Part shown: one piece after another, positions 9,857-23,891 of the stretch
How the letters are laid out: every line of letters begins with the position of its first letter
How positions within the stretch are numbered: position 1 is the first letter of the stretch
Assembly (NCBI GenBank): GCA_019056785.1
Contig: DXJV01000085.1
Span: 1-64,000 of the forward strand
DNA: 64,000 bases
Direction: 5' to 3'
Origin: Candidatus Heimdallarchaeota archaeon
GTDB taxonomy: Archaea > Asgardarchaeota > Heimdallarchaeia > JABLTI01
Program-made: the position numbers and the translations under genes
The notes under the pieces: model-generated
Seen by the model: the letters and a program-made list of their open reading frames with translations, nothing else
Told to the model about the DNA's origin: nothing
Database searches by the model: none

Positions 9857-10813
9857 GTGGCCAATAAAGAACCCCAACAAATAGATCTATTCCACCGAAG
9901 AGTTCTCAAAGCTAAACCCTTCCTTAAATGGGCCGGTGGTAAAGGGCAATTATTACCAGAAATTGAGAAGAGGTTACCAAAAAAGATAAAGAATACTCGA
10001 AAGGTTGACAATTATGTTGAACCTTTTGTTGGGGGCGGAGCAGTATTCTTTTATTTAAACAATAATTATACCATTAAAAAAGCAACTTTGATTGATAATA
10101 ATAAGGAATTAATTATTGGATACAAAGTCATTCAAAATAACCCACAAGAGTTGATAGAACAATTAAGATCAATTGAAAGACAATATTTGAAAAAATCATC
10201 CACTGAAAGAGAACGTTTCTATTATGAACAAAGAGACAAGTATAATAAACAAATGCGAGATTTCGATTACCAACATTACTCTGAAGAATGGATCAAACGA
10301 GCAGTCTATCTAATTTTTCTCAACAGAACTTGCTACAATGGACTTTTCCGGCAGAATTCAAAAGGAGAATTTAATGTTCCGATGGGGAGGTATAAGAATC
10401 CAACCATTTGTGATGCTAAGAATATCTTAGAAGTGCATGAGTCATTGAAAAAAGCCACAATCATTTGTGGAGATTTCTCAGAAGCAGAACAATATATAAC
10501 TCAGGACTCATTTGTCTATTTCGACCCACCATACCGACCTTTGAGTAATACAGCAAATTTCACAGATTATTCGAATGCAGGCTTCACAGATGAAGAACAA
10601 AAGCGTTTGGCAGCATTCTATAAGAAAATGGATAAACGAGGAGCTTTTCTAATGTTAAGCAATTCAGATCCAAAGAATGAGGACCCCAACGATGACTTTT
10701 TTGACAAATTATACGCTGAATTTAATATTCAACGGGTGAAAGCAAAAAGAGCCATTAGTTGTAAAGGCACCGGAAGAGGGGAGATAACTGAGTTATTAAT
10801 TACAAATTATTAG
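9857..10813 (+). CDS. Dam/DpnM-type N6-adenine DNA methyltransferase (alpha class)
   Basis: KPFLKWAGGK, YVEPFVGGGAV, NRTCYNGLFRQN.KGEFNVP, YFDPPY, ELLITNY. Confidence 0.92.
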   Translation: MANKEPQQIDLFHRRVLKAKPFLKWAGGKGQLLPEIEKRLPKKIKNTRKVDNYVEPFVGGGAVFFYLNNNYTIKKATLIDNNKELIIGYKVIQNNPQELIEQLRSIERQYLKKSSTERERFYYEQRDKYNKQMRDFDYQHYSEEWIKRAVYLIFLNRTCYNGLFRQNSKGEFNVPMGRYKNPTICDAKNILEVHESLKKATIICGDFSEAEQYITQDSFVYFDPPYRPLSNTANFTDYSNAGFTDEEQKRLAAFYKKMDKRGAFLMLSNSDPKNEDPNDDFFDKLYAEFNIQRVKAKRAISCKGTGRGEITELLITNY

Positions 10814-10875
10814 ATTGTTATCTGGATCTTCTCTTCTCATTTATACTATTTTTTTTTACATCATTTGAATTTGAT

Positions 10876-11496
10876 ATGAAGCTAGAAGAAATGTTTGAAG
10901 TTATTAGAACTCTTGATTTCGATAAAAAATTACAAGTGAAAAGAGTTGATGATTGTTCCCTCTACGTTTTACGCCCTTCAAAAGTTTCAAGGCGCTTTAA
11001 AAATTACGACCCAAAAAGAAACTTTCAAGTTTGGCTTAAAGAGGGTAATGAAGAATCATTCAAACCCAATCACCTTCGAGTGCTTCTCGATTTGAATTTG
11101 AGAGTACGAAGTAATCCTGATTTGAAGGAAGTTCTCCTAGAAGCTTTTGATGCAATCTTTTATGGTGAAGATCCAATGAGTGCTATCAAGCCTTTACAAG
11201 GGATTCATTTTGAGCATTTTCTAAATCCTTTGCCTATTATTGCTCACATGTCGCAATTATTCATAATTGAACAAACTCTAGGGTACACTTCAGCAAAAAA
11301 AAGTAAATATGACCCCCCATCCTTATTCTATCAAGGGTGGGTTCGCTCTTTTATTGATGGATCTCGAGAAATTGATCAGTTATGTATGAGCGCAAGTAGA
11401 AGACAACCACCATCAATAAAATACACCAAACTCGAGAATAAAAATAGGAAGGAATATTTAGAAAATCCTCCAAAGTTATGGTATTTAAAGAAATAA
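10876..11496 (+). CDS. Hypothetical protein; candidate restriction endonuclease
   Basis: 206-aa basic soluble protein between two DNA MTases. No canonical nuclease motif recognised; function inferred from context only. Confidence 0.45.
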   Translation: MKLEEMFEVIRTLDFDKKLQVKRVDDCSLYVLRPSKVSRRFKNYDPKRNFQVWLKEGNEESFKPNHLRVLLDLNLRVRSNPDLKEVLLEAFDAIFYGEDPMSAIKPLQGIHFEHFLNPLPIIAHMSQLFIIEQTLGYTSAKKSKYDPPSLFYQGWVRSFIDGSREIDQLCMSASRRQPPSIKYTKLENKNRKEYLENPPKLWYLKK

Positions 11497-11552
11497 AACA
11501 AAATCAATTAAAGCTTGAAAGATTTTAGTTAGATTGTGGTGTTTTTATCTTC

Positions 11553-12476
11553 ATGTGTCAAGAATATATTGAAATGATGGCTGTAACTGGAAAAGATTTC
11601 TCAACATTTAAACAAGCAAATAAAAAAGTGGTTATAGACGATGTTGAAATTGAAATTGGAGCTTATAAGAAAATCACCGAATTGCAACCAAAAGATTTCG
11701 CGTTAGAAATAACCAATGTTTGGAGCTTCCCAAAACGAGGGAAGTGGGCTACACACTATCTCAATGCTAAATATCGGGGTAATTGGGCTCCCCAAGTACC
11801 GAGGAATCTTATTTTAAGATATTCTAAAGAAGGTGAGATTGTACTCGATCCCTTTGTTGGCTCAGGGACAACATTAATAGAATGCAAACTAACGAACCGT
11901 CGGGGAATAGGAATTGATATCAATCGTGAAGCAGTGATGCTTGCCTTGGACAGATTAGACTTTGAGACATTACACGATGATTACCTTGAGCAAAAAGTCT
12001 TTCAAGGAGACGCCCGGAACTTGAATTTTCTAACAGATGAAAGCATTGACTTGATTGTTACTCATCCTCCTTATGCTAATATTATTGGTTACTCAAAACT
12101 ATCAAAAAAAGAGGGTGACCTTTCAAAAGTAAGTTCGATAGATGAATTCTGTGAAGAAATGACAAAAGTTGCTAAAGAATTTTTTCGCGTGCTCAAACCT
12201 GGGAGGTATTGTGCCATATTAATTGGTGACACCCGCCGGCAAAAACACCAAGTGCTAATTTCTTTTCGAGTGATGGAGAAATTTCTCGAGGTAGGATTCG
12301 CTTTGAAAGAGGACATCATTAAAATTCAACATAATACTAAAACTGAGCACCTGTGGCGAAAGCAATCCATTAAAAGTAACTTCCTTCTTTTAGCTTATGA
12401 GCACTTGTTTATTTTTCGTAAGCCTGAAGCAAAAGAAACTGAACGCCGCGTTCGAGAAAGTAAGAAATGGTGGTAA
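11553..12476 (+). CDS. N4-C/N6-A DNA methyltransferase
   Basis: VWSFPKRG.WATH, YRGNWAPQVPR, LDPFVGSGTT (SAM binding), THPPY (catalytic), VLKPG. Confidence 0.85.
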   Translation: MCQEYIEMMAVTGKDFSTFKQANKKVVIDDVEIEIGAYKKITELQPKDFALEITNVWSFPKRGKWATHYLNAKYRGNWAPQVPRNLILRYSKEGEIVLDPFVGSGTTLIECKLTNRRGIGIDINREAVMLALDRLDFETLHDDYLEQKVFQGDARNLNFLTDESIDLIVTHPPYANIIGYSKLSKKEGDLSKVSSIDEFCEEMTKVAKEFFRVLKPGRYCAILIGDTRRQKHQVLISFRVMEKFLEVGFALKEDIIKIQHNTKTEHLWRKQSIKSNFLLLAYEHLFIFRKPEAKETERRVRESKKWW

Positions 12477-12498: not shown

Positions 12499-13584
12499 TT
12501 ATGTTTCATTTAATTTTCTGGTAGTAGAAATAAGAGTTGTAATTCTTTTTTCAAATTGTTTGTCAAAGCAGAGAAATTCCAGTCGTTTATTTTCCCAGTC
12601 GTTATGTTCTTTTCCTTTATAATAAATTCTGAATTGAATATTATAGCTATTGATTCTTATAGTTCCTAGGAATAGAGTTAATTGATAAATTAATTTTGCC
12701 CCATTTTCTATATTGCAGTGTAGTTTTTGTGGAATTTCTTGTGGTACCTTAACTTTAATGCTTTCAAATCGATCCTTTGCCAAAGCAAAAGATTGATCAT
12801 CAGAAGTAATGTAGATAAATTTTACATCTTTTAATGAACTTTTATACTCTTCATATTCATTTATTATCGCTTGATCTTTGAGGTTTTTATCCTTCATTAT
12901 TTCATATTTCTCTTCCCCTCTTATTCTACTTTCTAATTGGGTGTAGGATTCTTCTAACGTTTTTAATTCTGAATAAATAGAATATGCTAATCTTGCTTTT
13001 CTGTCGATTTTTTCTGGGAGATAAAAATTTAGTTTCTTTAGTTTATTATTTAATTCTACTATTCCTTTACTACTTTCATTTCGCAAGAAAGCATCTCTTT
13101 CTACTAGCACCCAATTTGAGATTATATAGCTAAGAAAATTTCTCATTTGGAGGTTTTCTTTAGATGAAAATTCCTCTTCGACATAGCTACTCATTAGATT
13201 GTCTATAAGTTGATTTGTATCGAGGGCAATCAAAACCCTTTTTCGTCTATTCATTCTTTTTTTTGGTTGAAGATAGCTTTTAATCTCATTTATTAAAACA
13301 TCAATCCCTTCCGGCATTAATAATCCTGCAGAAACAACTGCTTTTTTTATGTCGTCAAATTGCGGCAATTCTTCTTGGGCTTTTTTGGAGAGTCCATACT
13401 CTTTAATTAATGTGTCAATGGATTTTTCCCAATCACTAGGTGTGGTGTTCAAATGCAATTCATTGTAATCTATGTTATACTCGAAAATTTTCTCTTTTGT
13501 GAGGGACATTAAAGATATCTTCTTTTTCCCTTTTGCACTTAATTCATTTAGTATTATTTGGATTTCAGGGTAAGAAATAATCAT
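12499..13584 (-). CDS. PIN-domain ribonuclease
   Basis: IALDTNQL, LVERD, KDQAII and YITSDD acidic PIN motifs. Its start overlaps the stop of the upstream CARF gene (ATGA). Confidence 0.75.
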   Translation of the reverse strand: MIISYPEIQIILNELSAKGKKKISLMSLTKEKIFEYNIDYNELHLNTTPSDWEKSIDTLIKEYGLSKKAQEELPQFDDIKKAVVSAGLLMPEGIDVLINEIKSYLQPKKRMNRRKRVLIALDTNQLIDNLMSSYVEEEFSSKENLQMRNFLSYIISNWVLVERDAFLRNESSKGIVELNNKLKKLNFYLPEKIDRKARLAYSIYSELKTLEESYTQLESRIRGEEKYEIMKDKNLKDQAIINEYEEYKSSLKDVKFIYITSDDQSFALAKDRFESIKVKVPQEIPQKLHCNIENGAKLIYQLTLFLGTIRINSYNIQFRIYYKGKEHNDWENKRLEFLCFDKQFEKRITTLISTTRKLNET

Positions 13585-14096
13585 TGAAACACTTCCATTA
13601 AGTCAACGCAGTTAAAATTCGTCCGAGGAATTTCGGAATACCATTTATTTTGATATTTTTCACTATCCCTTAAATGCCAGTAAATTATGTGTTGAAGAGT
13701 GATATTTTTGAATTGCTCTTTTCTTCTAAGAATTTTTATTGCAAATAAAACCCCAGAAATACTCATCGTCTTCCTCCCAGGAGTAATATCAATAACCAGT
13801 GTTTTTTTGTTATCACTCTTCTCCATGACTAAGTCAACTAGCATGTCAATATTTTTCTTAATTTCCCATTCAGAGATTATACCAGAGTTAATTTTGCATT
13901 GGCCATCAAGAAATTCATCCACCAAGGCTTGAATTGAATTCTTGATCTTATCTGAAATTAGCTCTTTGTCTGAAAATAGTAAGACTATTTCTGAAGGGAT
14001 AATCTTCTTTTTATCAATAGACGCCCAAATCGAATTAACAATTGAAAAACGGTTTACTCCACATAAAATCCAATAGGTACAATTTTCTACAGACAA
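13581..14096 (-). CDS. Stand-alone CARF-domain protein (ring-nuclease/Crn1-like or sensor)
   Basis: 171 aa Rossmann-like pattern with VIDITPGRKTMS CARF signature; GAGGT Shine-Dalgarno-like site before the TTG start. Confidence 0.7.
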   Translation of the reverse strand: MSVENCTYWILCGVNRFSIVNSIWASIDKKKIIPSEIVLLFSDKELISDKIKNSIQALVDEFLDGQCKINSGIISEWEIKKNIDMLVDLVMEKSDNKKTLVIDITPGRKTMSISGVLFAIKILRRKEQFKNITLQHIIYWHLRDSEKYQNKWYSEIPRTNFNCVDLMEVFQ

Positions 14097-14187
14097 TAAT
14101 TTGACCTCTGCTCACTTTCAACAAATAATTGTCAAAATGAAATAAAAAAGTTACTGTGAGTAAAAAGCGAAAAAAAGATTGTCTGTT

Positions 14188-14853
14188 TTATTTAGAAAAT
14201 ATGCGCGCAAAAAGCCGTCCGGTATTAGTGAGTTTTACAGTTTTATTTCGACCATCTATCGAAATTACAATCAACTCTTTTTGAGCCAGCTGCTTTAAAT
14301 GATAACTAATATTTTGTTTTGAAATCTGAAGCGCCTCATTTAAGGCAGAATTTGCTCGTTCAATTAAGCCATTTTCATGATAAATAAATGAGAGAATTTT
14401 TCGTTGCGTTTCCTCGAGTTCATGAATACTTGTTTTTGGAACTGGTAACTCAATAGTTAATTCTTTAACCCCTTTTCCTTTATTTCTAGGAATATTGCCA
14501 TCTTGAATATAATAGACATTAACCCCCAAAATGTAACCTGCTAAAAGTGCAGCAGAAGCCATTACTTTTGTGCCACCGGTAAGGTTAATGGAGATATTGT
14601 CTTTTTTGTGTTGCTTATGGAGATCCATAATTGTAATTACGACACTCTCAAGATCAAAGGCATCAACTTCGTGAATTTCACATTTAATCTCCATTTCTTC
14701 AACAACTTTTGCAATCTCTGAAGAATTTTTCCTAGAACCATCATCATTACTGCAAAGTAAAATTAACTTGTCAACAGGATAAACATTAACCCCAAGGAAA
14801 ATGGGTTCTTTTGTCAATCCGACAGTGGCAATATGCACTTCCATCGTCTTCAA
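14188..14853 (-). CDS. CARF-wHTH transcriptional regulator (Csa3/DUF6293-like)
   Basis: VHIATVG...DKLILL...SINLTGGTKVMASAALL CARF domain; C-terminal ISKQNISYHLKQL...GRNKTVKLTNTGR wHTH. ATG at 14844 is an alternative start. Confidence 0.85.
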   Translation of the reverse strand: MKTMEVHIATVGLTKEPIFLGVNVYPVDKLILLCSNDDGSRKNSSEIAKVVEEMEIKCEIHEVDAFDLESVVITIMDLHKQHKKDNISINLTGGTKVMASAALLAGYILGVNVYYIQDGNIPRNKGKGVKELTIELPVPKTSIHELEETQRKILSFIYHENGLIERANSALNEALQISKQNISYHLKQLAQKELIVISIDGRNKTVKLTNTGRLFARIFSK

Positions 14854-14888
14854 AGTCCTTTTTTCTCTCTTAGACTATTAACAGTTAT

Positions 14889-14923
14889 CTTTTATGATAA
14901 AAATCAAACTTTTATTATAAAAG
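14889..14923. promoter_or_regulatory. Tandem palindromic operator/TATA pair in a divergent promoter
   Basis: TTTTAT-G-ATAAAA (14890-14902) and C-TTTTAT-T-ATAAAA-G (14909-14923), 20 bp apart, between the CARF-wHTH gene and viperin. Confidence 0.55.
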
Positions 14924-14960
14924 GTTTTCTTTAAATATTAAATATACTTCATTACTAATC

Positions 14961-15854
14961 ATGAAACGCGGAAATTTAGAGATAAAAAAACCAATCAGCG
15001 TCAATTGGCATTTTTGGCCTTGGTGTAATATGAAATGCCGGTTTTGCTTTGCAACATTTAATGATGTCAAAAAAGTTCTACCAAAAAAGATGGCATTATG
15101 TGTTCCAAAGATGTTAAGAGACGCAGGAACAGAAAAAATAACTTTTGTAGGTGGGGAGCCAATGCTTTGTCCTTACTTGGGCGAATTATTAATTGAAGCA
15201 AAAAAGCAGGGATTAAAAACAAAAATAGTTTCTAATGGGACAGGTTTCACAAAAGAATTTTTGATAAAGTATTCTCAGTTCATTGATCAAGTTTCTCTAA
15301 GTATTGATAGTGCCAGCAACCAAATTGAAAAAGAATTGGGTAGAGGTTGGGGGGCACATGTCGACAAGATTCTCAAGGTGAGCAAATTGCTAAAAGAATT
15401 TCATATTCCAATGCAAATCAATACAACGGTAACAAAACTAACCTATACTGAAGATTTACATGAACTTATTAAAGCGCTTCAACCGTTTCGATGGAAAGTT
15501 TTTCAAGTATTAAAAATAGAAGGGCAAAATGATGGTCGAGTTGAAGAATTGTTAATAACAAAAACCGAATATGAAGAGTTTAAATTACGTCACAAAGATA
15601 TTCCGATAGCCGTTTTTGAAGATAATGAACTAATAACCGGCTCGTATATAATGCTGGACCCAGTAGGTCGGTTCTTTGATGATACCACAGGAAAACATGT
15701 TTATAGTGAGTCAATCTTCTCGGTAGGAGTGCAAAAAGCCTTCAGCCAAATCACCTGGGAGTCGCAAAAATTCTTGAAAAGAGGAGGACTATATTTTCAA
15801 AGTCCACTAAAAAAAAGTTTTAATAGTTATAATGGAAACATAATAAGGTCTTAA
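14961..15854 (+). CDS. Viperin-family antiviral radical SAM enzyme (ddhNTP synthase)
   Basis: SVNWHFWPWCNMKCRFCFATF (CxxxCxxC in viperin context), KITFVGGEP, SLSIDS, INTTV, RWKVFQVL.IEGQN, EDNELITGSYIMLDPVGRFF, FLKRGGLY. Confidence 0.92.
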   Translation: MKRGNLEIKKPISVNWHFWPWCNMKCRFCFATFNDVKKVLPKKMALCVPKMLRDAGTEKITFVGGEPMLCPYLGELLIEAKKQGLKTKIVSNGTGFTKEFLIKYSQFIDQVSLSIDSASNQIEKELGRGWGAHVDKILKVSKLLKEFHIPMQINTTVTKLTYTEDLHELIKALQPFRWKVFQVLKIEGQNDGRVEELLITKTEYEEFKLRHKDIPIAVFEDNELITGSYIMLDPVGRFFDDTTGKHVYSESIFSVGVQKAFSQITWESQKFLKRGGLYFQSPLKKSFNSYNGNIIRS

Positions 15855-15870
15855 AGGAGTTTATGAGAGA

Positions 15871-18630
15871 ATGTCAGAATTATTCTATCGAAACTTACCG
15901 GGGGTAAACTCTGATACACAAGCCCAAAAACTTATGCATCTCACCTATGAGAGTTTAGAACCATATTTCAATTATTTTCATAAATGTCGGAAAAAAATAG
16001 AGCAAAAAACAATTGAAATGACTCTCGTAAAAGTGGACTTGGAAGAAATAATCTCTGAGGAAATTTCTGTAATAAAAAGCGAACTTGTGGATGAAGAGCT
16101 AAGCTTTGAAGAAATTGAGTCTACCTTGAATTTTGAAATATACCTGGATAAAAGATTAATAAAATTTGCCAAAAAAGTTCGTAAAGAAAAATTCTTTGTT
16201 TATCAAATCGTAGAAAAAGATGATGAGTCATTTGCGAAAGAGAAAGAATCGTTTCTAAATTCTGAAGAAGTTTATTTTCATAAGAAATTTAGCAATAATA
16301 AATGTCGAATTGTTGGAATTTATGAACCATATAATTTAGTTGCTTTAGATAGAGTGTCTAAAGAGTTTAAAAATAAGGAACAAATAACGGTTTATGCAAG
16401 AGCAAGCATGTATGTTCTCGATATGATCTCAAAATCATTAAGATTCCTCCAAGATAAACCACAAGCACATAATCGTAATTTGATTAAATTGTTTGAAGAC
16501 AAAAAGTATGTTAATTTTGCGGATACGATTTTAACAAAATTTGTAGAAGATGATGAATGGCTCTTTCTAACAGAACTTGGGAGAAAAGGGACTAAAGAAC
16601 AAAGGGATTTTGTAAATATTGCTTTAACGACTTCTGATTTTGCAATATTAGAAGGTCCTCCTGGGTCAGGGAAAACTACAACAATTTGTGAGATAATCTA
16701 CCAAGGGATAAAACGTGGTAAAAGAATCTTACTTGTTGCTTCTACTCATGTTGCAGTAGATAATGTTCTAGAGAAATTATTTGATGAAGAAAAGGACTAT
16801 TACAACAAAGTTAAAGAAACAATTTTACCGATAAGAATTGGTAAACAAGACAATTGGAAAATTTCAGAGCTGGCTTCGCAGTTTCAGTTTGAAAATTTCT
16901 GGGAAGAAGAAAAAAACAGATTAATCACTTCGTTAACAAAATTAAAGGTCAAAACTCCTGCTCAAGAAGCTTTTCTAAGTTTGTTAAAACAAAAAGAAAA
17001 AAGTAAATTTGTTTCTAAATCTTTTTTAAATGCTGCAAATTTGGTCTGTGGTACCACTATAGGTATTCTAATGCACCCTGAATTAAGAAAAGTTAGATCT
17101 AAAGAAGCCATTACGCGCCCCTTTGACATGTTAATTTTGGATGAAGCTAGCAAAACAACCTTTCAAGAATTCCTTGTTCCGGCTTTAGCTGCAAAAACTT
17201 TTATTATCGTCGGAGACGTAATGCAATTACCCCCTTATGTTGAAGAAGAAGGTGTTTCATCAAACCTTGAATTTCTCTCTGAAAATAAAAATCACGATTT
17301 AGTTAATTTACATTTTAATTTAGACTCAATATATAAAAGGCATCTAAAAATTCCAAAAAGATGCTTAATCATCACTAAAAACACAAATGATTATCAACGA
17401 TACAAGTTACTTGAACAATATTATGATCGTAGTATTGCTTTTCTATACGAAGAAGATGAAACAATCGATCTTGCGACATTATGGGGTGCAGAATTTATAA
17501 TTGGAACAGAAGGAGCAATTAAAAAACATCAAGCGATTCTTCCTATAAGTTTGAGTTTTGTTAAAGAAAATTCAAATGATCTTTTGAAACCCATTGATTT
17601 TAAAGAATTAAGGCTTGAGCATTTTCAATTTACAAATAATTATTTTAAAGATAAATTCTTGAAAGAACAATCTATAAATTTTCGCCGTCAAGATGAATCA
17701 TGGGCTCATGGAATTAGCTGGCGATTAAATCGCTCATTTGAACATAGATTTCTTCAAGAAAATTTCTACGATTTGGAAATCGAGAAAAGACTTCCAAAAT
17801 GGTTAGAAGAAGATGAATTAAATGAAATCAAATTTTTCCTTGAAGATATAAAGAAAATTTCTTATCCTTCAGTTATTGAATTATTGCAAAAAGGTTTCAA
17901 AAGAAAATACCGAAAAGAAAATACTGTGCTTACTGAAGGGTTTAATGAAAGGGATCTCAAATTACGGCATCGAAAATTAATTTACCAACACAGAATGCAT
18001 CCTGACATTTCTGCTTTTTCCAGAGAAAATTTCTATGACAAAAAGGCACTTTTAGACTTTCCGGGGATTGAGGGAGAGAGAGCTCATACAATTAGAGATT
18101 ATCAGTATCATCTTTATTGGGTAGACGTTAAAGTGCCTTCAAGATACAAGTCGCGAAATGTAAATTTGAATAAATATGAAATTAAAGCTATTTTGCAAGA
18201 ACTGGGTTATCTTGAAAAATGGTTAATAAATAATCCAAAACCAAAGAATCGATTTTGGACAATTGCAATTCTTCCATTCTATAAAGCACAAGAAAACCTC
18301 TTGAGAGAACAATTACGGAAAAAATTTAAATCAAAGAGATTTCGAACATTTGTAGATAGGAAAAACAGAATTCGAATTGAACTATGCGTTATAGACAGAT
18401 TTCAAGGGCATGAAGCAGATTTCGTTTTTCTTTCTATGGTTCAAAATAGACGTGTCGGTTTTCTTGATTGCCCTAATAGATTAAATGTCGCTCTAACTAG
18501 AGGAAAATATCAAGTACTAATAGTTGGAGACAATAAATTTTTTGCCAGCGAAAATCATCGTTCTGATATTTTAAGAAAATTGGCTCGAACAACAAAATGC
18601 CTAAAAAGGATTTACAAATATGGGAGTTGA
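15871..18630 (+). CDS. Superfamily 1 helicase (UPF1/DNA2/Nam7-like, AAA_11/AAA_12)
   Basis: EGPPGSGKTT, ASTHVAVDN, ILDEAS, VGDVMQLPP, QHRMHPDIS, IDRFQGHEAD, NRLNVALTRGK. Confidence 0.92.
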   Translation: MSELFYRNLPGVNSDTQAQKLMHLTYESLEPYFNYFHKCRKKIEQKTIEMTLVKVDLEEIISEEISVIKSELVDEELSFEEIESTLNFEIYLDKRLIKFAKKVRKEKFFVYQIVEKDDESFAKEKESFLNSEEVYFHKKFSNNKCRIVGIYEPYNLVALDRVSKEFKNKEQITVYARASMYVLDMISKSLRFLQDKPQAHNRNLIKLFEDKKYVNFADTILTKFVEDDEWLFLTELGRKGTKEQRDFVNIALTTSDFAILEGPPGSGKTTTICEIIYQGIKRGKRILLVASTHVAVDNVLEKLFDEEKDYYNKVKETILPIRIGKQDNWKISELASQFQFENFWEEEKNRLITSLTKLKVKTPAQEAFLSLLKQKEKSKFVSKSFLNAANLVCGTTIGILMHPELRKVRSKEAITRPFDMLILDEASKTTFQEFLVPALAAKTFIIVGDVMQLPPYVEEEGVSSNLEFLSENKNHDLVNLHFNLDSIYKRHLKIPKRCLIITKNTNDYQRYKLLEQYYDRSIAFLYEEDETIDLATLWGAEFIIGTEGAIKKHQAILPISLSFVKENSNDLLKPIDFKELRLEHFQFTNNYFKDKFLKEQSINFRRQDESWAHGISWRLNRSFEHRFLQENFYDLEIEKRLPKWLEEDELNEIKFFLEDIKKISYPSVIELLQKGFKRKYRKENTVLTEGFNERDLKLRHRKLIYQHRMHPDISAFSRENFYDKKALLDFPGIEGERAHTIRDYQYHLYWVDVKVPSRYKSRNVNLNKYEIKAILQELGYLEKWLINNPKPKNRFWTIAILPFYKAQENLLREQLRKKFKSKRFRTFVDRKNRIRIELCVIDRFQGHEADFVFLSMVQNRRVGFLDCPNRLNVALTRGKYQVLIVGDNKFFASENHRSDILRKLARTTKCLKRIYKYGS

Positions 18631-18636
18631 GATTAA

Positions 18637-19755
18637 ATGAAGATTGTGCTAGAAAAAGAAGTTATGATTGAGAAATACCAAGTACTAATGGATATAGAAG
18701 TAGAAAAGGATCGCCCTGAAGTGTTAGCTTGGTTAAAAGTTATTAAAGAAGGAAATGAGTTAAATAACGATGTTATTCTCTACTTTCAAGAAAAGATATT
18801 CTTTGAATCACAAAAACCAAAGCAATTTATCAAGAACATTTTGCAAGAATTGGTGGTACTTGGTTTCTTGGATGAAAAGTTTAATTTAACTCAAAAAGGT
18901 TTAACAGCATTAGAGGAAGGAACTGTTTTCATACCTCAAAGCGGTATCTATGAACTTTTAGTTATTAACGATCCTTTATTTCCACAAGTAATACTAGATT
19001 ATAAAGAATTTAAACCAGACCTCCATGAAGAAAAAAAGCAATGGAAGAATAACCCTGGAAGTGTTAATTATGAAAACACAACCATCCCATCTTTTATTAG
19101 CAAATGTAAGGAGTTTGGTCCTATTAGACCCTTGAAAAATTCCGGCGAAACATTAATCAGAATTTTTAACATTAAAAAGGTAGGTAAGAAAGAAAAATTT
19201 CAAAAAAAGACCAAAGTGCGTATGGATATAGGTGAAATGACACAAATTTCTTTAAAAATTGAATACAATAAAAAGTTTCATTTTCTAGAACCTCCGAGAG
19301 ATATTGATAAAATAAAATTAGTAGAATCGATACTTCGAAAGCTCCCCTATCCTGTGGATGAAGAAGTCTATAGTGTTCTAATAAATTTTGATGAAACTAC
19401 ACCAAAAGAACGAAAAACGTTCTCTAAAAACTTCAGCTTAATAAAGGAAACCCTCTTAAATTTAGGGAAATTTGAATCTATTAAATTGATTGATGTACCT
19501 ATTCTTCCTAGTAGCTTTGATTCTGCAAAAAAATGGGCTAAGGAGTTAATTAAAAACGAGATAAATACTTTTCTTACAACCAACGAATTCGATTTAATAT
19601 CAAAAGAGATTACCCATAAAGAGGAATTTGCTATGTTTAATTTACCTAATATTTCTATTGATGAAATGCTCCTTGAGGCTTCCTTTGGTAGTCAAGTATT
19701 TTGGTTTCTTAAAGCTCCTCGAGATTTAAAGTTAGAAAAGGTGATTAGTAAATGA
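18637..19755 (+). CDS. Hypothetical protein with a probable N-terminal winged helix
   Basis: 372 aa; ILQELVVLGFLD..FNLTQKG wing motif; tightly linked to both neighbours (6-bp gap upstream, 4-nt overlap downstream). Confidence 0.55.
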   Translation: MKIVLEKEVMIEKYQVLMDIEVEKDRPEVLAWLKVIKEGNELNNDVILYFQEKIFFESQKPKQFIKNILQELVVLGFLDEKFNLTQKGLTALEEGTVFIPQSGIYELLVINDPLFPQVILDYKEFKPDLHEEKKQWKNNPGSVNYENTTIPSFISKCKEFGPIRPLKNSGETLIRIFNIKKVGKKEKFQKKTKVRMDIGEMTQISLKIEYNKKFHFLEPPRDIDKIKLVESILRKLPYPVDEEVYSVLINFDETTPKERKTFSKNFSLIKETLLNLGKFESIKLIDVPILPSSFDSAKKWAKELIKNEINTFLTTNEFDLISKEITHKEEFAMFNLPNISIDEMLLEASFGSQVFWFLKAPRDLKLEKVISK

Positions 19756-21227
19756 TCAAACCAATAATAATTGAGAAGGTTTTTAACAATAATGAAATTA
19801 TCCCAAATTATTGGGCAATTCTTGACCATAAAAATCCTGAAATTATTCGAACAAAGAAGATTATCCCAATAAGTAATGATAATTACAAATTTAAAAGTCT
19901 CATGACTTCTGCAATTAATAATGCCTCAGAAACGATAATGCTCTGTTCATTTATTCTAAGTGATAATGAAATCATTGAGTCACTAATTGCTGCTGCTGAA
20001 AGAAATGTTCGAGTTTATCTTCTTTTTAGTACTGAAACCCAATTAGATAAAGAATTCAAAGAAGACAAGTCAGAATTTGATGTTGAAATGGTTGAAAGTC
20101 ACAAAGCATTTCTTAAGAAAATCTCAGGGAAGGCGCTTGCTCGTTCAGCTATTTTTCATGCTAAATTTCTTTTAGTCGATTATGGCTTGCCAAGTCAAGT
20201 TGGCTTTATTTCAACTGCTAATTTTACTAGTGAAGCCCTCTCTCGAAATCAAGAACTAGGCGTGAGACTTCAATCAAAATCAGACCTTGATATCTTGTTC
20301 TCTTTCTTCCAGCACGGATTTTGGGAGGAAGCTGAAATGGAATTTCACAATGATAGCTGGATTGGTGCGAAAACCTTTTCATTAATTCCAATAGAAACAA
20401 GCGATCGTATTGTTTCCACTTCTAAAAATAATAAATCTCTAAAGAAAAAAATATTGAACTTGATAAAATCAACATCTGGACCACTTATTGTCTCGAGTTA
20501 CAGTTTTAAAATGGATAATGAGTTAACTAAGGCACTTATTGCTTTAGCAAAAGAACGGGAAATAACCATTCTAACACGACCAAGATTTCAAAACTTGGAA
20601 GTATTAAATAGCTTTCTCGCAAATGGTGCAGAAATCTATTGCTATGATTATATTCATGCGAAATTCATTCTCGCCCCAAGAGAAAACAAAGGGATCATAA
20701 TGACTGCTAATTTTGACGATCGTGGAATAGAAACTGGCTATGAGGTTGGTATTGTTTTGAATCCATCGGAGATTGAAGAGTTAAAAACTATTAGTAATTC
20801 ATGGATTGCTAATGCCCAGTATCAATTTAAAGAAGGTAAAAAAATTGTTGAAATTGAAGCAAAAGAAATACAATATTTTGAGGGTAATGAATTAAAGAAG
20901 TTTTCAGTTATCACTGAAGAAAATATTTACGAAGAGAAAAACCCCGAGGACTTAAGAGAAATGAGTCCTTTAAGCAACATAAACAGTTTTAATTTTCAAT
21001 TTAACGATGAAGACAAGCTCATAAAAAAAGTCAATCTTAAGAGAAAAATAATCCCCCCAAAATTACCTGCAGGCGCCAGAAAGTTAAAGGACAATCCATA
21101 CCCTTATGATTTATTTGAATTTAAAGGGCAAAATTATTTACTACTGAAAAATGAAAGAGCGCTAACCAGTATTCTTAAAGAAGCCGGGCATAAAAAGTAT
21201 CACAAGATTCGTTTCGTAACTAATTAA
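19752..21227 (+). CDS. Phospholipase D-superfamily protein with two HKD-like domains (probable nuclease)
   Basis: FHAKFLLVD...STANFT...NQELG and IHAKFILAP...MTANFD...GYEVG. No signal peptide or TM segment. Confidence 0.85.
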   Translation: MIKPIIIEKVFNNNEIIPNYWAILDHKNPEIIRTKKIIPISNDNYKFKSLMTSAINNASETIMLCSFILSDNEIIESLIAAAERNVRVYLLFSTETQLDKEFKEDKSEFDVEMVESHKAFLKKISGKALARSAIFHAKFLLVDYGLPSQVGFISTANFTSEALSRNQELGVRLQSKSDLDILFSFFQHGFWEEAEMEFHNDSWIGAKTFSLIPIETSDRIVSTSKNNKSLKKKILNLIKSTSGPLIVSSYSFKMDNELTKALIALAKEREITILTRPRFQNLEVLNSFLANGAEIYCYDYIHAKFILAPRENKGIIMTANFDDRGIETGYEVGIVLNPSEIEELKTISNSWIANAQYQFKEGKKIVEIEAKEIQYFEGNELKKFSVITEENIYEEKNPEDLREMSPLSNINSFNFQFNDEDKLIKKVNLKRKIIPPKLPAGARKLKDNPYPYDLFEFKGQNYLLLKNERALTSILKEAGHKKYHKIRFVTN

Positions 21228-21332: not shown

Positions 21333-23405
21333 TTGTCGAAAAAATTTTTAGCAATGTTTAGTGTAAGTTTCTTAGTTGCTCTTCTAACGATTTCATGGTC
21401 TTCCTTTTCATTTACCGGTAACTCTTCTCTTACGCCATCTCCTGTTTTGCCTTCTTTTCAGACCCAACCTTCTCCGGCCGATGGCCCTTTGGCTTTTGAC
21501 TATGATTGGTTGGTTTTGAATTACATTGATGGCGACAATAATCTTGAGGCGGAAGCGATTGGGGATATGAATGAGTTGGAGGTTGCTAAGGTTTCTTCCA
21601 GCCGGGTAATGATCCTTGCATTGGTTGATCGTGCAAGTGGTTATGATGACACCAATGGCGATTGGACCGGCACGCGTTTGTATGAGATTACTCATGATTC
21701 TGATGCTGATATCATTGCTTCTACCTTGCTGGTTGATTATGGCGAGCTGAATATGGGTCAGGCTTCGACGCTCGAGTTATTATTGAATTATGGTTTTGCC
21801 AATTATTCTGCCGAGAAAATTTGGTTGAATCTTTGGGACCATGGTGGTGGTATAGATGGCATTTGTTGGGACGATGAGTCAGGCAACGATTATCTTTCTA
21901 TTAACGAGATGCAATCAGCTATTGCTACTAGTACTACTACTTATGGTCGCACCCTTGATCTTATCTCTCATGACGCTTGTTTCATGAACATGATTGAGGT
22001 TGCTTATGAGTTGCGAGATTATGCTGACTTTTTTGTTGCCTCTGAGGACTCTATTCCTGGTATGGGCTATAATTACACTGCAATTATTGATGACTTAGAA
22101 GCAGATACAACGATGAATGCCGAAACTCTTGCAGGGGTACTTGTTGACACTTACGAGGATATGTATGATAGTATTACGACTGATGTCACCCTTTCCGCTT
22201 TGAATTTGAGTTATATTGTGGATTTTGCAGTTCTTACCGATTACTTAGCGCATAACTTAACTGCGGTGTTAAACGATGGTCAGATTTCTGCTGTTAAAAC
22301 AGCTTTTCTTGATTCCTATGATTTTTATGATAATTACATTGTTGACTACAAGGATTTTGTGGACCAATTGCTGGCGAATACTACCCTGATGTCGAGTTAT
22401 CCTGCCTTACAAGCTATTGCAACCAGTGTTCAGTCAGCATTTAGCAACTTAGTGGTAGCGAATTATCAACACAGCAGTTATTCAGGAAAAGCTCAAGGTG
22501 TGACGATTTTCATGCCAGTGCCTTCGAGTACCTATCAGAGTTATATTGATAATTATGTTGGCCATCTTGATAGGTTTGCAGGCATCGATTGGTTGTCTAA
22601 TGTTTATTGGGACGAGTTTTTGGATCTTTTCTATAGTCTCTACGATACGACCAGCATCTATCCAGTCATATCATTGGATGAGCTACTTACTTCGCAATCG
22701 ATCAACTATGATGAGTCCCAATTTTTCGAGTTCAACGCCCCTGAAGACGCTATTTACTTATTCTCGCTGAGCATTCTAGATGGCGATATCGACCTTTACC
22801 TTCGAGATTATTATTCCAACGATATTATTGCCTATAGCCAATTTTACAATCCAGATGACGGTTCCACAGAAAAAATCCAACACTACTTTAAGGGCGGCAA
22901 ATATCTAATTGAAATCTACGGCTTTGAACTTTCACATTACAACTTCATCATTACACAAGAGGAACCAACTATCTTACAATTAAACTCCCTGGTCTCCGGT
23001 AGCAGCGGCAGCCAAGAAGGCACAGATTCTAACCATTATATGCAAATTTTCAATCATTTCTACCAGATAACTCTGTTAGAGGGTGATTATCAGATAACTA
23101 TCACCTATGATAGCGATGTGGTGGACTTTGACCTCTTCCTTTTGAGTACAAATTTCGTTGAGCTAAATAAATCCGCAAGCATTTATGACAAGGATGAAAT
23201 TGTTGTTAACGTTAACTCTGAGACAACGTACATTATTGCTGTCTATAGTTATTCAGGTCATGGCTCATTTAATCTCATTGTAACTGTTTATACTCCTCCA
23301 AGCCCATCGCCTTCAGGGTTCATTCCGGGCTTTACAGCAGCAATTGCTCTGGTAGCCCTTTTGGGTCTTAACACAATTGTTTTCCTTAGAAAGAAAAGGA
23401 GCTAA
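21333..23405 (+). CDS. Clostripain-family (C11) peptidase with PPC-like domains and a PGF-type C-terminal anchor
   Basis: YIDGDNNLE, ELNMG, LWDHGGG (His), HDACFM (Cys), ASED; DIDLYL/DFDLFL PPC-like repeats; PGF-TM-RKKRS tail. Confidence 0.85.
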   Translation: MSKKFLAMFSVSFLVALLTISWSSFSFTGNSSLTPSPVLPSFQTQPSPADGPLAFDYDWLVLNYIDGDNNLEAEAIGDMNELEVAKVSSSRVMILALVDRASGYDDTNGDWTGTRLYEITHDSDADIIASTLLVDYGELNMGQASTLELLLNYGFANYSAEKIWLNLWDHGGGIDGICWDDESGNDYLSINEMQSAIATSTTTYGRTLDLISHDACFMNMIEVAYELRDYADFFVASEDSIPGMGYNYTAIIDDLEADTTMNAETLAGVLVDTYEDMYDSITTDVTLSALNLSYIVDFAVLTDYLAHNLTAVLNDGQISAVKTAFLDSYDFYDNYIVDYKDFVDQLLANTTLMSSYPALQAIATSVQSAFSNLVVANYQHSSYSGKAQGVTIFMPVPSSTYQSYIDNYVGHLDRFAGIDWLSNVYWDEFLDLFYSLYDTTSIYPVISLDELLTSQSINYDESQFFEFNAPEDAIYLFSLSILDGDIDLYLRDYYSNDIIAYSQFYNPDDGSTEKIQHYFKGGKYLIEIYGFELSHYNFIITQEEPTILQLNSLVSGSSGSQEGTDSNHYMQIFNHFYQITLLEGDYQITITYDSDVVDFDLFLLSTNFVELNKSASIYDKDEIVVNVNSETTYIIAVYSYSGHGSFNLIVTVYTPPSPSPSGFIPGFTAAIALVALLGLNTIVFLRKKRS

Positions 23406-23438
23406 TTATAATTCCTTTTCTCCCTCTTTTCTCTTTTT

Positions 23439-23891
23439 CTAATCTTCCCAATCAAAATCATTGTTGTATTGAAAAACGAAGTCTATTTCTTCTGGGATTT
23501 CAAACCCAATCACTTTTTTAAACTGCTGGATGTTTCTTTTGCCGACAATAAAAAGCTCGGGCCGTTCATCTTCTCTTTGCGGGAAGTAAAGAAAAGAATG
23601 GATCCCAAACATTTGCAGTCCTTTTTGATAGCGTTCCAGTTTCAAGAAGTTGTGTTGTTGAATCGAGAGAATAATGTTTGTATTGTTGTTAAAGTAAATG
23701 ACCCCACAACTATCGAACACGCCACGGAGAAAGGATTGTAAATTACTCTTATCCATTGAGACTATTTCGCCACTTTCATCTGCACTGCTTCTTTGAGTAG
23801 TGTGGTGCTCTAAATTATGAATCAACTTCTCTTTATCGAAACTCTTCAAAAGGCTTTCACCAAATGTATTGCTCAATCTATCTCTCAGCAA
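23439..23891 (-). CDS. LAGLIDADG-like domain protein
   Basis: FLRGVFDSCGVI helix and IQQFKKVIGF motif typical of LAGLIDADG_3 domains. Confidence 0.55.
   Translation of the reverse strand: MLRDRLSNTFGESLLKSFDKEKLIHNLEHHTTQRSSADESGEIVSMDKSNLQSFLRGVFDSCGVIYFNNNTNIILSIQQHNFLKLERYQKGLQMFGIHSFLYFPQREDERPELFIVGKRNIQQFKKVIGFEIPEEIDFVFQYNNDFDWED

Follow-up and report, generated by a model that had tools for sequence, protein, structure and literature searches.

A seven-gene locus joining viperin, CARF proteins and a Mokosh-like helicase-adaptor-nuclease trio in a Heimdallarchaeota archaeon: a candidate composite antiviral system

The first 64,000 nucleotides of contig DXJV01000085.1 (assembly GCA_019056785.1, forward strand; hereafter, the window) of a Candidatus Heimdallarchaeota archaeon contain a locus of seven genes arranged in two divergent arms. 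The plus strand encodes a prokaryotic viperin (pVip), a superfamily 1 (SF1) helicase, a protein designated g6 and a PLD-superfamily nuclease, and the minus strand encodes a CARF protein with a winged helix-turn-helix (wHTH) domain, a stand-alone CARF protein and a PIN-domain protein (Table 1). A sequence-only reading of this stretch had proposed the locus as a candidate new antiviral system, inferred to be a second-messenger-inducible viperin regulon, and its account of the layout was exact when the coordinates of the open reading frames (ORFs) were checked against the window sequence: all seven ORFs were recovered with the stated strands, gaps and overlaps, as was the spacer between the arms. 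An independent assembly (L002), represented by a 99% identical contig, carries the same seven genes in identical order, and therefore the layout is not an assembly artefact.

Table 1. Genes and sequence features of the locus (positions in the window)
Feature	Position	Strand	Size or source
PIN-domain RNase subunit	12499..13584	-	361 aa
Stand-alone CARF protein	13581..14096	-	171 aa
Csa3-like CARF-wHTH transcription factor	14188..14853	-	221 aa
Divergent promoter/operator spacer (candidate)	14854..14960	.	107 bp
Palindrome 1, TTTTATGATAAAA, candidate operator half of twin site	14890..14902	.	pattern search
Palindrome 2, TTTTATTATAAAA	14910..14922	.	20 bp from palindrome 1, two helical turns
Prokaryotic viperin (pVip), gene 1 of plus operon	14961..15854	+	297 aa
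UPF1-like SF1 helicase, MkoA-like core	15871..18630	+	919 aa
g6 adaptor (predicted), winged helix in beta-rich scaffold	18637..19755	+	372 aa
PLD-superfamily nuclease, two HKD motifs in one chain	19752..21227	+	491 aa
Oligo-T tract right behind the PLD stop codon	21228..21243	+	sequence read

The genes of the plus arm are tightly packed, with gaps of 16 and 6 bp followed by a 4-nt overlap between g6 and the PLD gene. Archaeal terminators are T-runs, and the oligo-T tract behind the PLD stop codon is, as read from the sequence, likely the end of the plus transcript. On the minus strand, the CARF and PIN genes share an ATGA overlap indicative of translational coupling and are set apart from the CARF-wHTH gene by a T-rich gap of 91 bp, so that the left arm may consist of two transcription units. 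Of the arrangement in two divergent operons originally proposed, the compact and recurrent gene set is upheld as more than a chance assembly of neighbours, and the left arm is possibly split in two. The CARF-wHTH gene has two potential start codons, TTG at 14853 or ATG at 14844, the latter being used in the gene call of L002; the protein probably starts at the ATG, which would give 218 residues and a spacer of 116 bp. The catalytic motifs are intact in every enzyme of the locus. The domain assignments of the sequence-only reading were upheld, those of viperin, the SF1 helicase, the CARF-wHTH, CARF and PLD proteins by profile matches and that of the PIN protein by its fold; g6, which had been called a wHTH protein, matches no family, yet residues 25-96 of its structural model form a winged helix.

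With 269.8 bits against NF038283, the viperin is above the curated cut-off of 180, and it matches the pVip model of PADLOC at 1.6e-78 and mouse viperin (5vsl) at an E value of 7e-54. The cysteines of the radical S-adenosylmethionine (SAM) motif CxxxCxxC (C22/C26/C29) and the SAM-binding GGEP motif (G64-G65-E66-P67) are kept in 11 homologues. The viperin of locus L024 is 47% identical and occupies the matching position in its operon; the L024 helicase is 100% identical to a named record of Ca. Heimdallarchaeum aukensis, and because the genome of that organism encodes only one viperin above the cut-off, the L024 protein should be AsgVip01. This enzyme blocks T7 and makes several 3'-deoxy-3',4'-didehydro nucleoside triphosphates (ddhNTPs) (bioRxiv 10.1101/2023.09.13.557418).

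For a wider context, 400 genomes from the phylum of the window were searched for g6 in six frames, and 10 kb on each side of 20 g6 matches were fetched. Viperins above the cut-off were found at 28 loci in 26 of the 400 genomes, 12 of these loci adjoining a helicase gene. In the window and in L024, L026, L027, L028, L032, L040, L043, L052 and L063, pVip lies 0-16 bp upstream of the helicase gene or one UMP-kinase-like gene away from it; in L025 the gap between the two ORF calls is 316 bp, and in L035 viperin is two genes from the helicase, g6 and PLD genes (hereafter, the trio). Viperin heads the trio operon in genomes of the Heimdall class and is present in 9 of the 20 fetched trio loci as well as on two truncated contigs, the order pVip-helicase-g6-PLD being constant in loci from four to five families. 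Eight viperin-linked helicases form a single clade (support 98/96), and viperin and g6 share a genome far above expectation (13 genomes, odds ratio 33, p 2e-11; related genomes are not independent). Taken together with the distribution of CARF genes described below, there is strong support for a bona fide viperin fused to the front of the operon and for CARF proteins as companions of the trio in Asgard archaea and bacteria. Described pVips are reported as solo genes or as accompanied by nucleotide kinases, kinases being the only neighbours reported in a published analysis of viperin neighbourhoods; the window viperin, in contrast, heads a helicase-adaptor-nuclease operon next to a CARF-wHTH gene.

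Two further genes were observed beside Asgard viperins. In loci of family f5 (L027:1803-2549, L032:13182-13877, L043:5644-6366, L052 and L050) a UMP-kinase-like gene of the amino-acid-kinase family separates viperin and helicase; its product probably supplies the substrate, as do the kinases of other viperin loci, but has a different kinase fold. Seven Asgard loci (L026:14159-14650, L035:4362-4835, L058, L059, L061, L062 and L066) have, immediately next to viperin, a gene for a small NYN (Zc3h12a-like) RNase, whether the trio is present or not; it constitutes a second recurrent viperin partner.

The helicase contains the AAA_11/AAA_12 SF1 domains of Pfam and matches the PADLOC model MkoA at 1.1e-78, its nearest solved relatives being UPF1, SMUBP-2, NAM7, DNA2 and SEN1. 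Both Walker motifs are conserved (A, G262PPGxGKT269; B, D424EAS), the first ~230 residues could not be assigned to a family, and no kinase family appears among the Pfam matches of the 919-aa protein. The PLD protein matches PLDc_2 (9.1e-29) in two stretches, and residues H136, K138, D143, N157, H302, K304 and N320 are invariant in 21 sequences; in PADLOC it matches DrmC at 2e-22 and MkoB at 7.9e-7, the latter partially (residues 48-175), and among solved nucleases it is closest to NucT. The middle protein, g6, has no match in Pfam, PADLOC or NCBIfam. A word-indexed protein search returned 2 matches and made it look like an orphan, whereas an exhaustive search raised the number of relatives to 328 at E<=1e-3 among 1.84 billion cluster representatives. 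Its AlphaFold2 (AF2) model is of high confidence (predicted local distance difference test, pLDDT, 94.1), and the winged helix resembles DNA binders of the MarR/DtxR type (Z 9.4, root-mean-square deviation (rmsd) 2.0, 67 residues aligned). Foldseek gave no PDB match at E<=1e-3 for this model and VIA-align matched the winged helix only, so that the rest of the fold may have relatives that went undetected; similar predicted folds in the ESM Atlas belong to bacterial hypothetical proteins (TM 0.74-0.81).

The three proteins behave as a set. The order helicase, g6, PLD is constant in 20/20 fetched loci, which represent 20 genomes of the phylum and show 24-47% identity, and the pairwise distances of the three proteins correlate with r values of 0.91-0.95, which strongly supports the notion that they are inherited and evolve as a unit. 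Structure prediction of a g6-PLD complex gave an ipSAE score of 0.82 (0.81, 0.82 and 0.82 in three runs), the best of 3 controls reaching 0.00; in calibration, 58/80 solved complexes and 2/110 mismatched pairs attained the mark, counts that hold roughly since the analysis used its own alignments. The runs share at least 97% of their contacts, and the pLDDT of the partners is at least 80. The predicted interface comprises, on the g6 side, the family-invariant W356 and the near-invariant D363 near the C-terminus and, on the PLD side, the invariant Y89 and the near-invariant R87, F186 and W191; the model thus supports binding of g6 to PLD through conserved C-terminal residues. That the trio is a genuine three-subunit unit appears highly probable.

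Among the 400 genomes, g6 was found in 24, belonging to 20 genera, and three arrangements recur among its loci. In the first, a CARF-wHTH gene is divergent from pVip, sometimes a UMP-kinase-like gene, helicase, g6 and PLD (window, L024, L026, L027, L032, L040, L043 and L052; L025 has a domain-swapped HTH-CARF gene, and L028 and L063 are cut by contig ends). In the second, CARF-wHTH, CARF, PIN, helicase, g6 and PLD follow one another on one strand (L029, L030 and L038), and in the third the CARF-wHTH gene is accompanied by the trio only (L031, L034, L035 and L041). All seven gene kinds are found in L040, L024 and L025, with a rearranged order in the last two. The two arms brought together by the sequence-only reading therefore do co-occur in other genomes, and in L029, L030 and L038 CARF and PIN are operon-fused to the trio, the PIN and helicase genes of L038 overlapping by 4 nt. 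Overall, the conserved core is the Mokosh-like helicase-adaptor-PLD trio and viperin is an optional add-on; the viperin-centred view of the locus holds insofar as viperin is real and fused to the operon, but the core lies in the trio and 16 of the 28 viperin loci are away from it.

Three trio loci have other companions. In L036 (172-13822, G312:C1) a complete type III-B cmr operon (RAMP, Cas10/Cmr2, Cmr3, RAMP, Cmr5, RAMP) overlaps the start of helicase-g6-PLD and a PIN+CARF pair is convergent downstream; here the trio looks like an accessory module of a type III CRISPR system. In L034, a Cas6 gene lies upstream of CARF-wHTH and the trio. In L039 (3061-12825, G134:C1, a closed genome) a long Argonaute (PIWI + PAZ, 817 aa) is encoded 50 bp upstream, on the same strand, of a trio with an enlarged helicase (1276 aa) and a PLD protein of 762 aa, a link seen once in 20 loci; the g6 of this locus had no close relatives in the word-indexed protein search, and the combination of PIWI, UPF1-MOV10-like helicase and PLD is reminiscent, by analogy, of the PIWI-interacting RNA (piRNA) pathway.

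Beyond the archaea, members of the g6 family are found in Gammaproteobacteria, Dechloromonas and other bacteria. Taxonomic breadth refers to the search of one phylum plus five bacterial contexts, and 5/5 of the latter contain the trio, its gene order unchanged. In 4/5 it is followed by a sigma-54-type AAA+ gene, at which the fifth contig breaks off; the best NCBIfam match of this protein is RtcR (NF038308), with the alignment extending into the CARF region (3e-56 and 8e-54 in the two that were scanned). As the bacterial trios carry this RtcR-like CARF-AAA+ gene, the CARF link spans both domains. This four-gene version (L044-L047:4932-14103; L048, L072 and L073) is flanked by traV/trbC and dsbC/traC of an SXT/R391-type integrative and conjugative element (ICE) and adjoins AbiE in Vibrio, Proteus and related Gammaproteobacteria, and elsewhere it lies beside an integrase and SoFic. 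A name for the bacterial four-gene system was not found.

The putative regulator of the locus matches the PADLOC model CARF3 over its full length (1.2e-51). In Pfam, residues 5-117 match HFX_2341_N (9.7e-18), Csa3_N and CARF_Card1, and residues 138-219 match DUF6293_C and MarR wHTH domains; the motif N90-x-TGGT95 is conserved. Of the 17 trio loci that retain their upstream side, 14 have this gene within the operon or in divergent orientation to it. Sulfolobales Csa3a/Csa3b share with this protein an N-terminal CARF domain, a C-terminal winged helix, a length of about 220 aa and PADLOC Csa3/CARF3 matches, and Csa3 is reported to bind cyclic tetra-adenylate (cA4) and palindromic promoter sites (PMC8844856, PMC8699464). 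Unlike Csa3, the window regulator adjoins no cas gene, type III cas genes were not found in its genome, it scores 45 bits against TIGR01884 (Csa3), below the cut-off of 60.2, and its presumed targets are the genes of the viperin/Mokosh-like operon instead of CRISPR genes.

That the spacer is a regulatory region, as had been suggested, is consistent with the presence of twin palindromes. The pattern TTTTATNATAAAA has 2 matches in the 64-kb window, both of them in the spacer (expected, 0.09; at least 2 in 0/100 shuffles), and 6 sites in the 2.87-Mb genome, where the spacer holds the only pair. A brief look at the four single copies elsewhere in the genome, among them one within a gene and another at the start of a gene, did not establish a second regulon member. 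Comparison with the equivalent spacers of 9 other loci revealed twin palindromes 19-20 bp apart in L024, L026, L027 and, in degenerate form, L040, with lineage-specific sequences: in L024 and L026 palindrome 1 is identical and palindrome 2 differs at the centre only while the flanks have diverged, and the pair of L027 has a different sequence that is not TATA-like. From their sequence, the twin palindromes fit a dimeric wHTH regulator acting on two candidate sites. A sigma-70 promoter scan found 35 matches vs 35.9 expected and is uninformative here, the host being an archaeon.

The stand-alone CARF protein matches the PADLOC models CARF_m1 (1.1e-20) and CARF_m1--CARF_PIN (1.9e-15) and conserves the ligand-site motif D103-x-TPGRK109. 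Its only sequence match in the PDB is the N-terminus of SiRe_0806 (9jxw_A 67-101, with DITPGRK in common and a weak E of 0.6). The PIN protein is weakly recognized by sequence (PIN_4, E 1e-4); its AF2 model (pLDDT 78.9) consists of an N-terminal alpha/beta domain and a PIN core at about residues 116-288, and D122, T123, E162, R195 and D262 are invariant in 8 homologues. The best structural match of this model is SiRe_0806 of Sulfolobus islandicus (9jxw, Z 15.4, rmsd 3.2, 242 residues aligned, model 1-361 vs chain 155-418), followed by PIN domains (3i8o, with Z 13.6, Nmd4, EST1A and Utp24), and Foldseek retrieved 9jxx/9jxw at an E value of 1e-5. As the PIN model matches SiRe_0806 and the CARF protein shares its DITPGRK motif, the two genes represent the sensor and nuclease halves of a split CARF-PIN effector. 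SiRe_0806, for which an apo structure (9jxw) and one with cA4 (9jxx) are available, is a single chain; the window version is encoded by two overlapping genes, is 14-19% identical to it and is not linked to CRISPR. A paper on SiRe_0806 was not found in the literature searched. In L024 and L025, the protein labelled c10 is a divergent PIN.

Because the same parts recur together in many distant relatives, the locus is probably one undescribed composite antiviral system, and we assign a probability of roughly 0.6 to the view that it is a single CARF-governed system built around the Mokosh-like trio. In the mechanism that we propose, the dimeric Csa3-like CARF-wHTH protein would sit on the twin palindromes and gate both divergent promoters; an infection signal, most likely cA4, would bind its CARF domain and switch the operon on. 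Viperin would then make chain-terminating ddhNTPs, the helicase-adaptor-PLD machine would unwind and cut viral RNA or replication intermediates, and the same signal, bound by the stand-alone CARF protein, would activate its PIN partner for RNA cleavage in the manner of a split SiRe_0806-type effector.

Several observations weigh against this reading. Viperin is missing from 11 of the 20 trio loci, a trio is missing from the vicinity of 16 of the 28 viperin loci, and the distances of viperin follow those of the trio loosely (r 0.40-0.55). Being rich in AT, the palindromes might in part represent TATA elements of the archaeal type. Furthermore, Cas10 (TIGR02577, TIGR02578 and PF22335), RAMPs and cGAS/DncV-like nucleotidyltransferases (CD-NTases) were undetected in the genome, which is 82.5% complete; Cas10 was found in 0/11 other sampled genomes of the family, and 14 of the 24 trio-bearing genomes, including closed or 96-100% complete ones, are without it. 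Finally, the divergence of locus L040, described below, could equally result from independent cassettes landing in one hotspot.

The claim that the system is second-messenger-inducible is consequently unproven: a Cas10, RAMP or cyclase was found neither in the genome nor in the 11 other sampled genomes of the family, Cas10 is lacking in 14 of the 24 trio genomes, and the trio clearly does not require it. The single SMODS match in the genome, considered as a signalling cyclase, proved to be a CCA-adding enzyme beside a 2'-5' ligase-like gene. We place the chance that a cyclic oligoadenylate (cOA) is the ligand a little short of even. Among the candidates, cA4 is favoured, by analogy, by the SiRe_0806 and Csa3 precedents and by L036, and a 2',3'-cyclic-phosphate RNA signal is favoured, likewise by analogy, by the RtcR-like bacterial partners and the precedent of the CoCoNuT superoperons.

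In line with this, the composite system might be as proposed except that its CARF domains do not read the cOA of type III CRISPR systems. This fits the distribution of Cas10 and the RtcR-like CARF-AAA+ protein of the bacterial versions (NF038308, 3e-56), and the CoCoNuT study proposes that RtcR-type CARF proteins control defence operons with UPF1-like helicases in response to cyclic-phosphate RNA (PMC11090510). Conversely, cA4 is bound by the protein closest to the CARF+PIN pair among solved structures, the trio lies within a cmr operon in one related locus and next to Cas6 in another, Cas10 is enriched among trio genomes (10/24 vs 59/376, odds ratio 3.8, p 0.003; related genomes are not independent), and the incompleteness of metagenome-assembled genomes could hide Cas10. 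On balance, we regard a ligand of another kind within the same composite system as rather unlikely, while giving it serious weight.

The question of which nucleic acid is attacked by the trio leads to its comparison with known systems. Mokosh type I consists of two genes, MkoA, a helicase gene with a serine/threonine kinase domain, and the PLD nuclease MkoB, and its defence is abolished by mutations in the Walker and HKD sites (bioRxiv 10.1101/2022.05.11.491447). Like Mokosh type I, the window operon combines a COG1112/UPF1-like SF1 helicase with a PLD-family nuclease, with intact Walker A/B and HKD motifs. Unlike it, the window helicase lacks the kinase domain, there are three genes with g6, absent from the PADLOC models, in the middle in every locus examined, the PLD protein is a single chain with two HKD motifs whose MkoB match covers part of the model and is surpassed by DrmC, and the trio is accompanied by CARF proteins and, in archaea of the Heimdall class, by viperin. 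DISARM shares the layout of helicase, middle protein and PLD nuclease, and DrmC is the best family match of the latter; however, the window helicase is SF1 and UPF1-like instead of an SF2 DrmA, g6 is not a DUF1998 protein, the match to DrmC (NF038319, 77.9 bits) is below the curated cut-off of 133, and the locus contains neither a dedicated DISARM methyltransferase nor DrmD/E.

Given these relationships, the trio might be a DNA-targeting, restriction-like machine that acts in the manner of DISARM, with the winged helix of g6 reading DNA, instead of an RNA-targeting Mokosh-like one. The PLD protein matches DrmC far ahead of MkoB, its nearest solved nuclease, NucT, is a DNA nuclease, UPF1-like helicases include the DNA-acting DNA2 and SMUBP-2, the g6 winged helix resembles those of DNA binders, and the trio has methyltransferase genes in its vicinity in the window, L028, L040 and L074. 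Nevertheless, the helicase matches MkoA at 1e-78 and has UPF1 as its nearest solved relative, the trio is accompanied by RNases (PIN, NYN) and by viperin, a poison of RNA synthesis, the DrmC score stays under its cut-off, and DrmA, DrmB or DUF1998 matches did not appear in the Pfam and PADLOC scans. A DNA target is considered rather unlikely, though not a marginal proposal.

It may also be asked whether the genes are just neighbours in a defence island. Viperin on its own, a Mokosh-like trio sufficient in itself and an orphan CARF regulator plus CARF-PIN effector would then be separate systems gathered in a low-GC hotspot, sharing neither regulation nor mechanism. The GC content across the island is 0.30-0.35 vs 0.36-0.44 in most of the remaining window, and the island is flanked on one side by a restriction-modification (RM)-like methyltransferase cluster and on the other by a clostripain-type peptidase gene. 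Each module also occurs without the others and, besides the loose correlation of viperin with the trio, a trio cassette has been swapped within one genus behind a conserved viperin/CARF arm. Specifically, the window and L040 (G082:C43, same genus) are 73.5% identical in CARF-wHTH, 68% in PIN, 64% in viperin and 53% in CARF, vs 35% in helicase, 24% in g6 and 31-35% in PLD, which in L040 is split in two ORFs (456 + 124 aa). The trio of L040 is divergent and its helicase belongs to a clade other than that of the eight viperin-linked helicases, indicating that the viperin-trio junction arose twice or that the cassette was replaced. On the other hand, mere vicinity is hard to reconcile with the operonic spacing (0-16 bp and overlaps) and the gene order kept in four to five families, the monophyly of the viperin-linked helicases, the PIN/helicase overlap of L038 and the six-gene single-strand operons of L029 and L030, the CARF companions of the trio in both domains and the excess of genomes with both viperin and g6. 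Such an assembly of unrelated neighbours is therefore considered improbable.

The surroundings of the locus comprise additional genes. Directly upstream, at 9857-12476 of the window and on one strand, lie a D12-class Dam methyltransferase, a 206-aa ORF without assignment and an N6_N4 methyltransferase; homologues of the window methyltransferases are also found near the trio in L028 and L040. A 144-aa ORF at 9219-9653 matches the eukaryote-typical Bles03 domain (PF08939, E 5e-25). On the other flank (21333-23891), a gene for a 690-aa C11 peptidase of the clostripain family, which carries a PPC domain, is followed on the opposite strand by one for a LAGLIDADG-like protein of 150 aa.

An alternative role for the stand-alone CARF protein is that of a Crn1-like ring nuclease that degrades the signal and resets the system instead of activating PIN. 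The window protein consists of CARF only and, at 171 aa, has the size of known stand-alone ring nucleases. Against this, its gene and the PIN gene share an ATGA overlap in the window as well as in L040, L025 and L036. The protein corresponds to the CARF part of CARF_m1--CARF_PIN fusions and to the N-terminal region of SiRe_0806, the remainder of which corresponds to the PIN protein, and CARF and PIN stay together in 8 loci; a ring nuclease is considered quite improbable. A housekeeping role in RNA quality control was set aside in view of the patchy distribution (24/400 genomes), the low GC, the RM neighbours and the bacterial relatives located in an ICE hotspot beside AbiE or by an integrase and SoFic.

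If the locus is taken as one composite system, its originality lies in the combination. CoCoNuT superoperons (PMC11090510) resemble it in that a CARF-domain regulator governs an operon with a UPF1-like helicase (CnuH there) and nucleases; unlike them, the window locus has no McrBC or coiled-coil nuclease parts and its archaeal regulator is Csa3-like instead of RtcR-like, and CoCoNuTs are without viperin. Accessory modules of type III CRISPR systems differ in that Cas10 and effector genes were found neither in the window locus nor in its genome at 82.5% completeness, although they are present in L036, where cmr1-6 are fused to the trio. No account that links viperin with CARF genes or with an operon of helicase and PLD was found in the literature searched, in agreement with the statement of the sequence-only reading that it knew of no system with this architecture, and the defining features of Mokosh type I, DISARM and curated Csa3 are not all present, so that the locus does not coincide in full with a named system. 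The expression "new antiviral system" needs qualification; since the parts of the locus are of known kinds (pVip, UPF1-like helicase and PLD, Csa3-like regulator, split CARF-PIN), it is better considered a new composite variant than something categorically new.

A more speculative possibility, to which we attach a low probability, is that viperin and the trio constitute one "terminate-and-decay" pathway, in which viral transcripts or replication intermediates terminated by ddhNTPs would be the substrate or trigger of the UPF1-like helicase and would be passed via g6 to the PLD nuclease. Such a pathway would foreshadow, in archaea, both the UPF1-based surveillance of aberrant RNA in eukaryotes and the MOV10L1-PLD6 step of piRNA biology, and it would be switched on by CARF sensors that read a non-Cas10 signal in most Asgard hosts; in L039, the long PIWI/PAZ Argonaute directly precedes the trio.

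These findings reveal a widespread, unnamed three-gene Mokosh-like family with a new adaptor, which current defence-finding tools would split or miss, and raise the question of which signal is read by CARF sensors in hosts without a type III CRISPR system. The arrangement of the locus offers, by analogy, a prokaryotic parallel to the inducible expression of viperin in animals. No known organisms are closer to eukaryotes than Asgard archaea, and eukaryotic immunity against viruses and transposons makes use of viperin, UPF1/MOV10-type helicases and PLD6/Zucchini-type nucleases alike. The repeated fusion of the three in one operon, beside a putative alarm-sensing regulator, suggests that viperin may not act alone in its ancestral setting.

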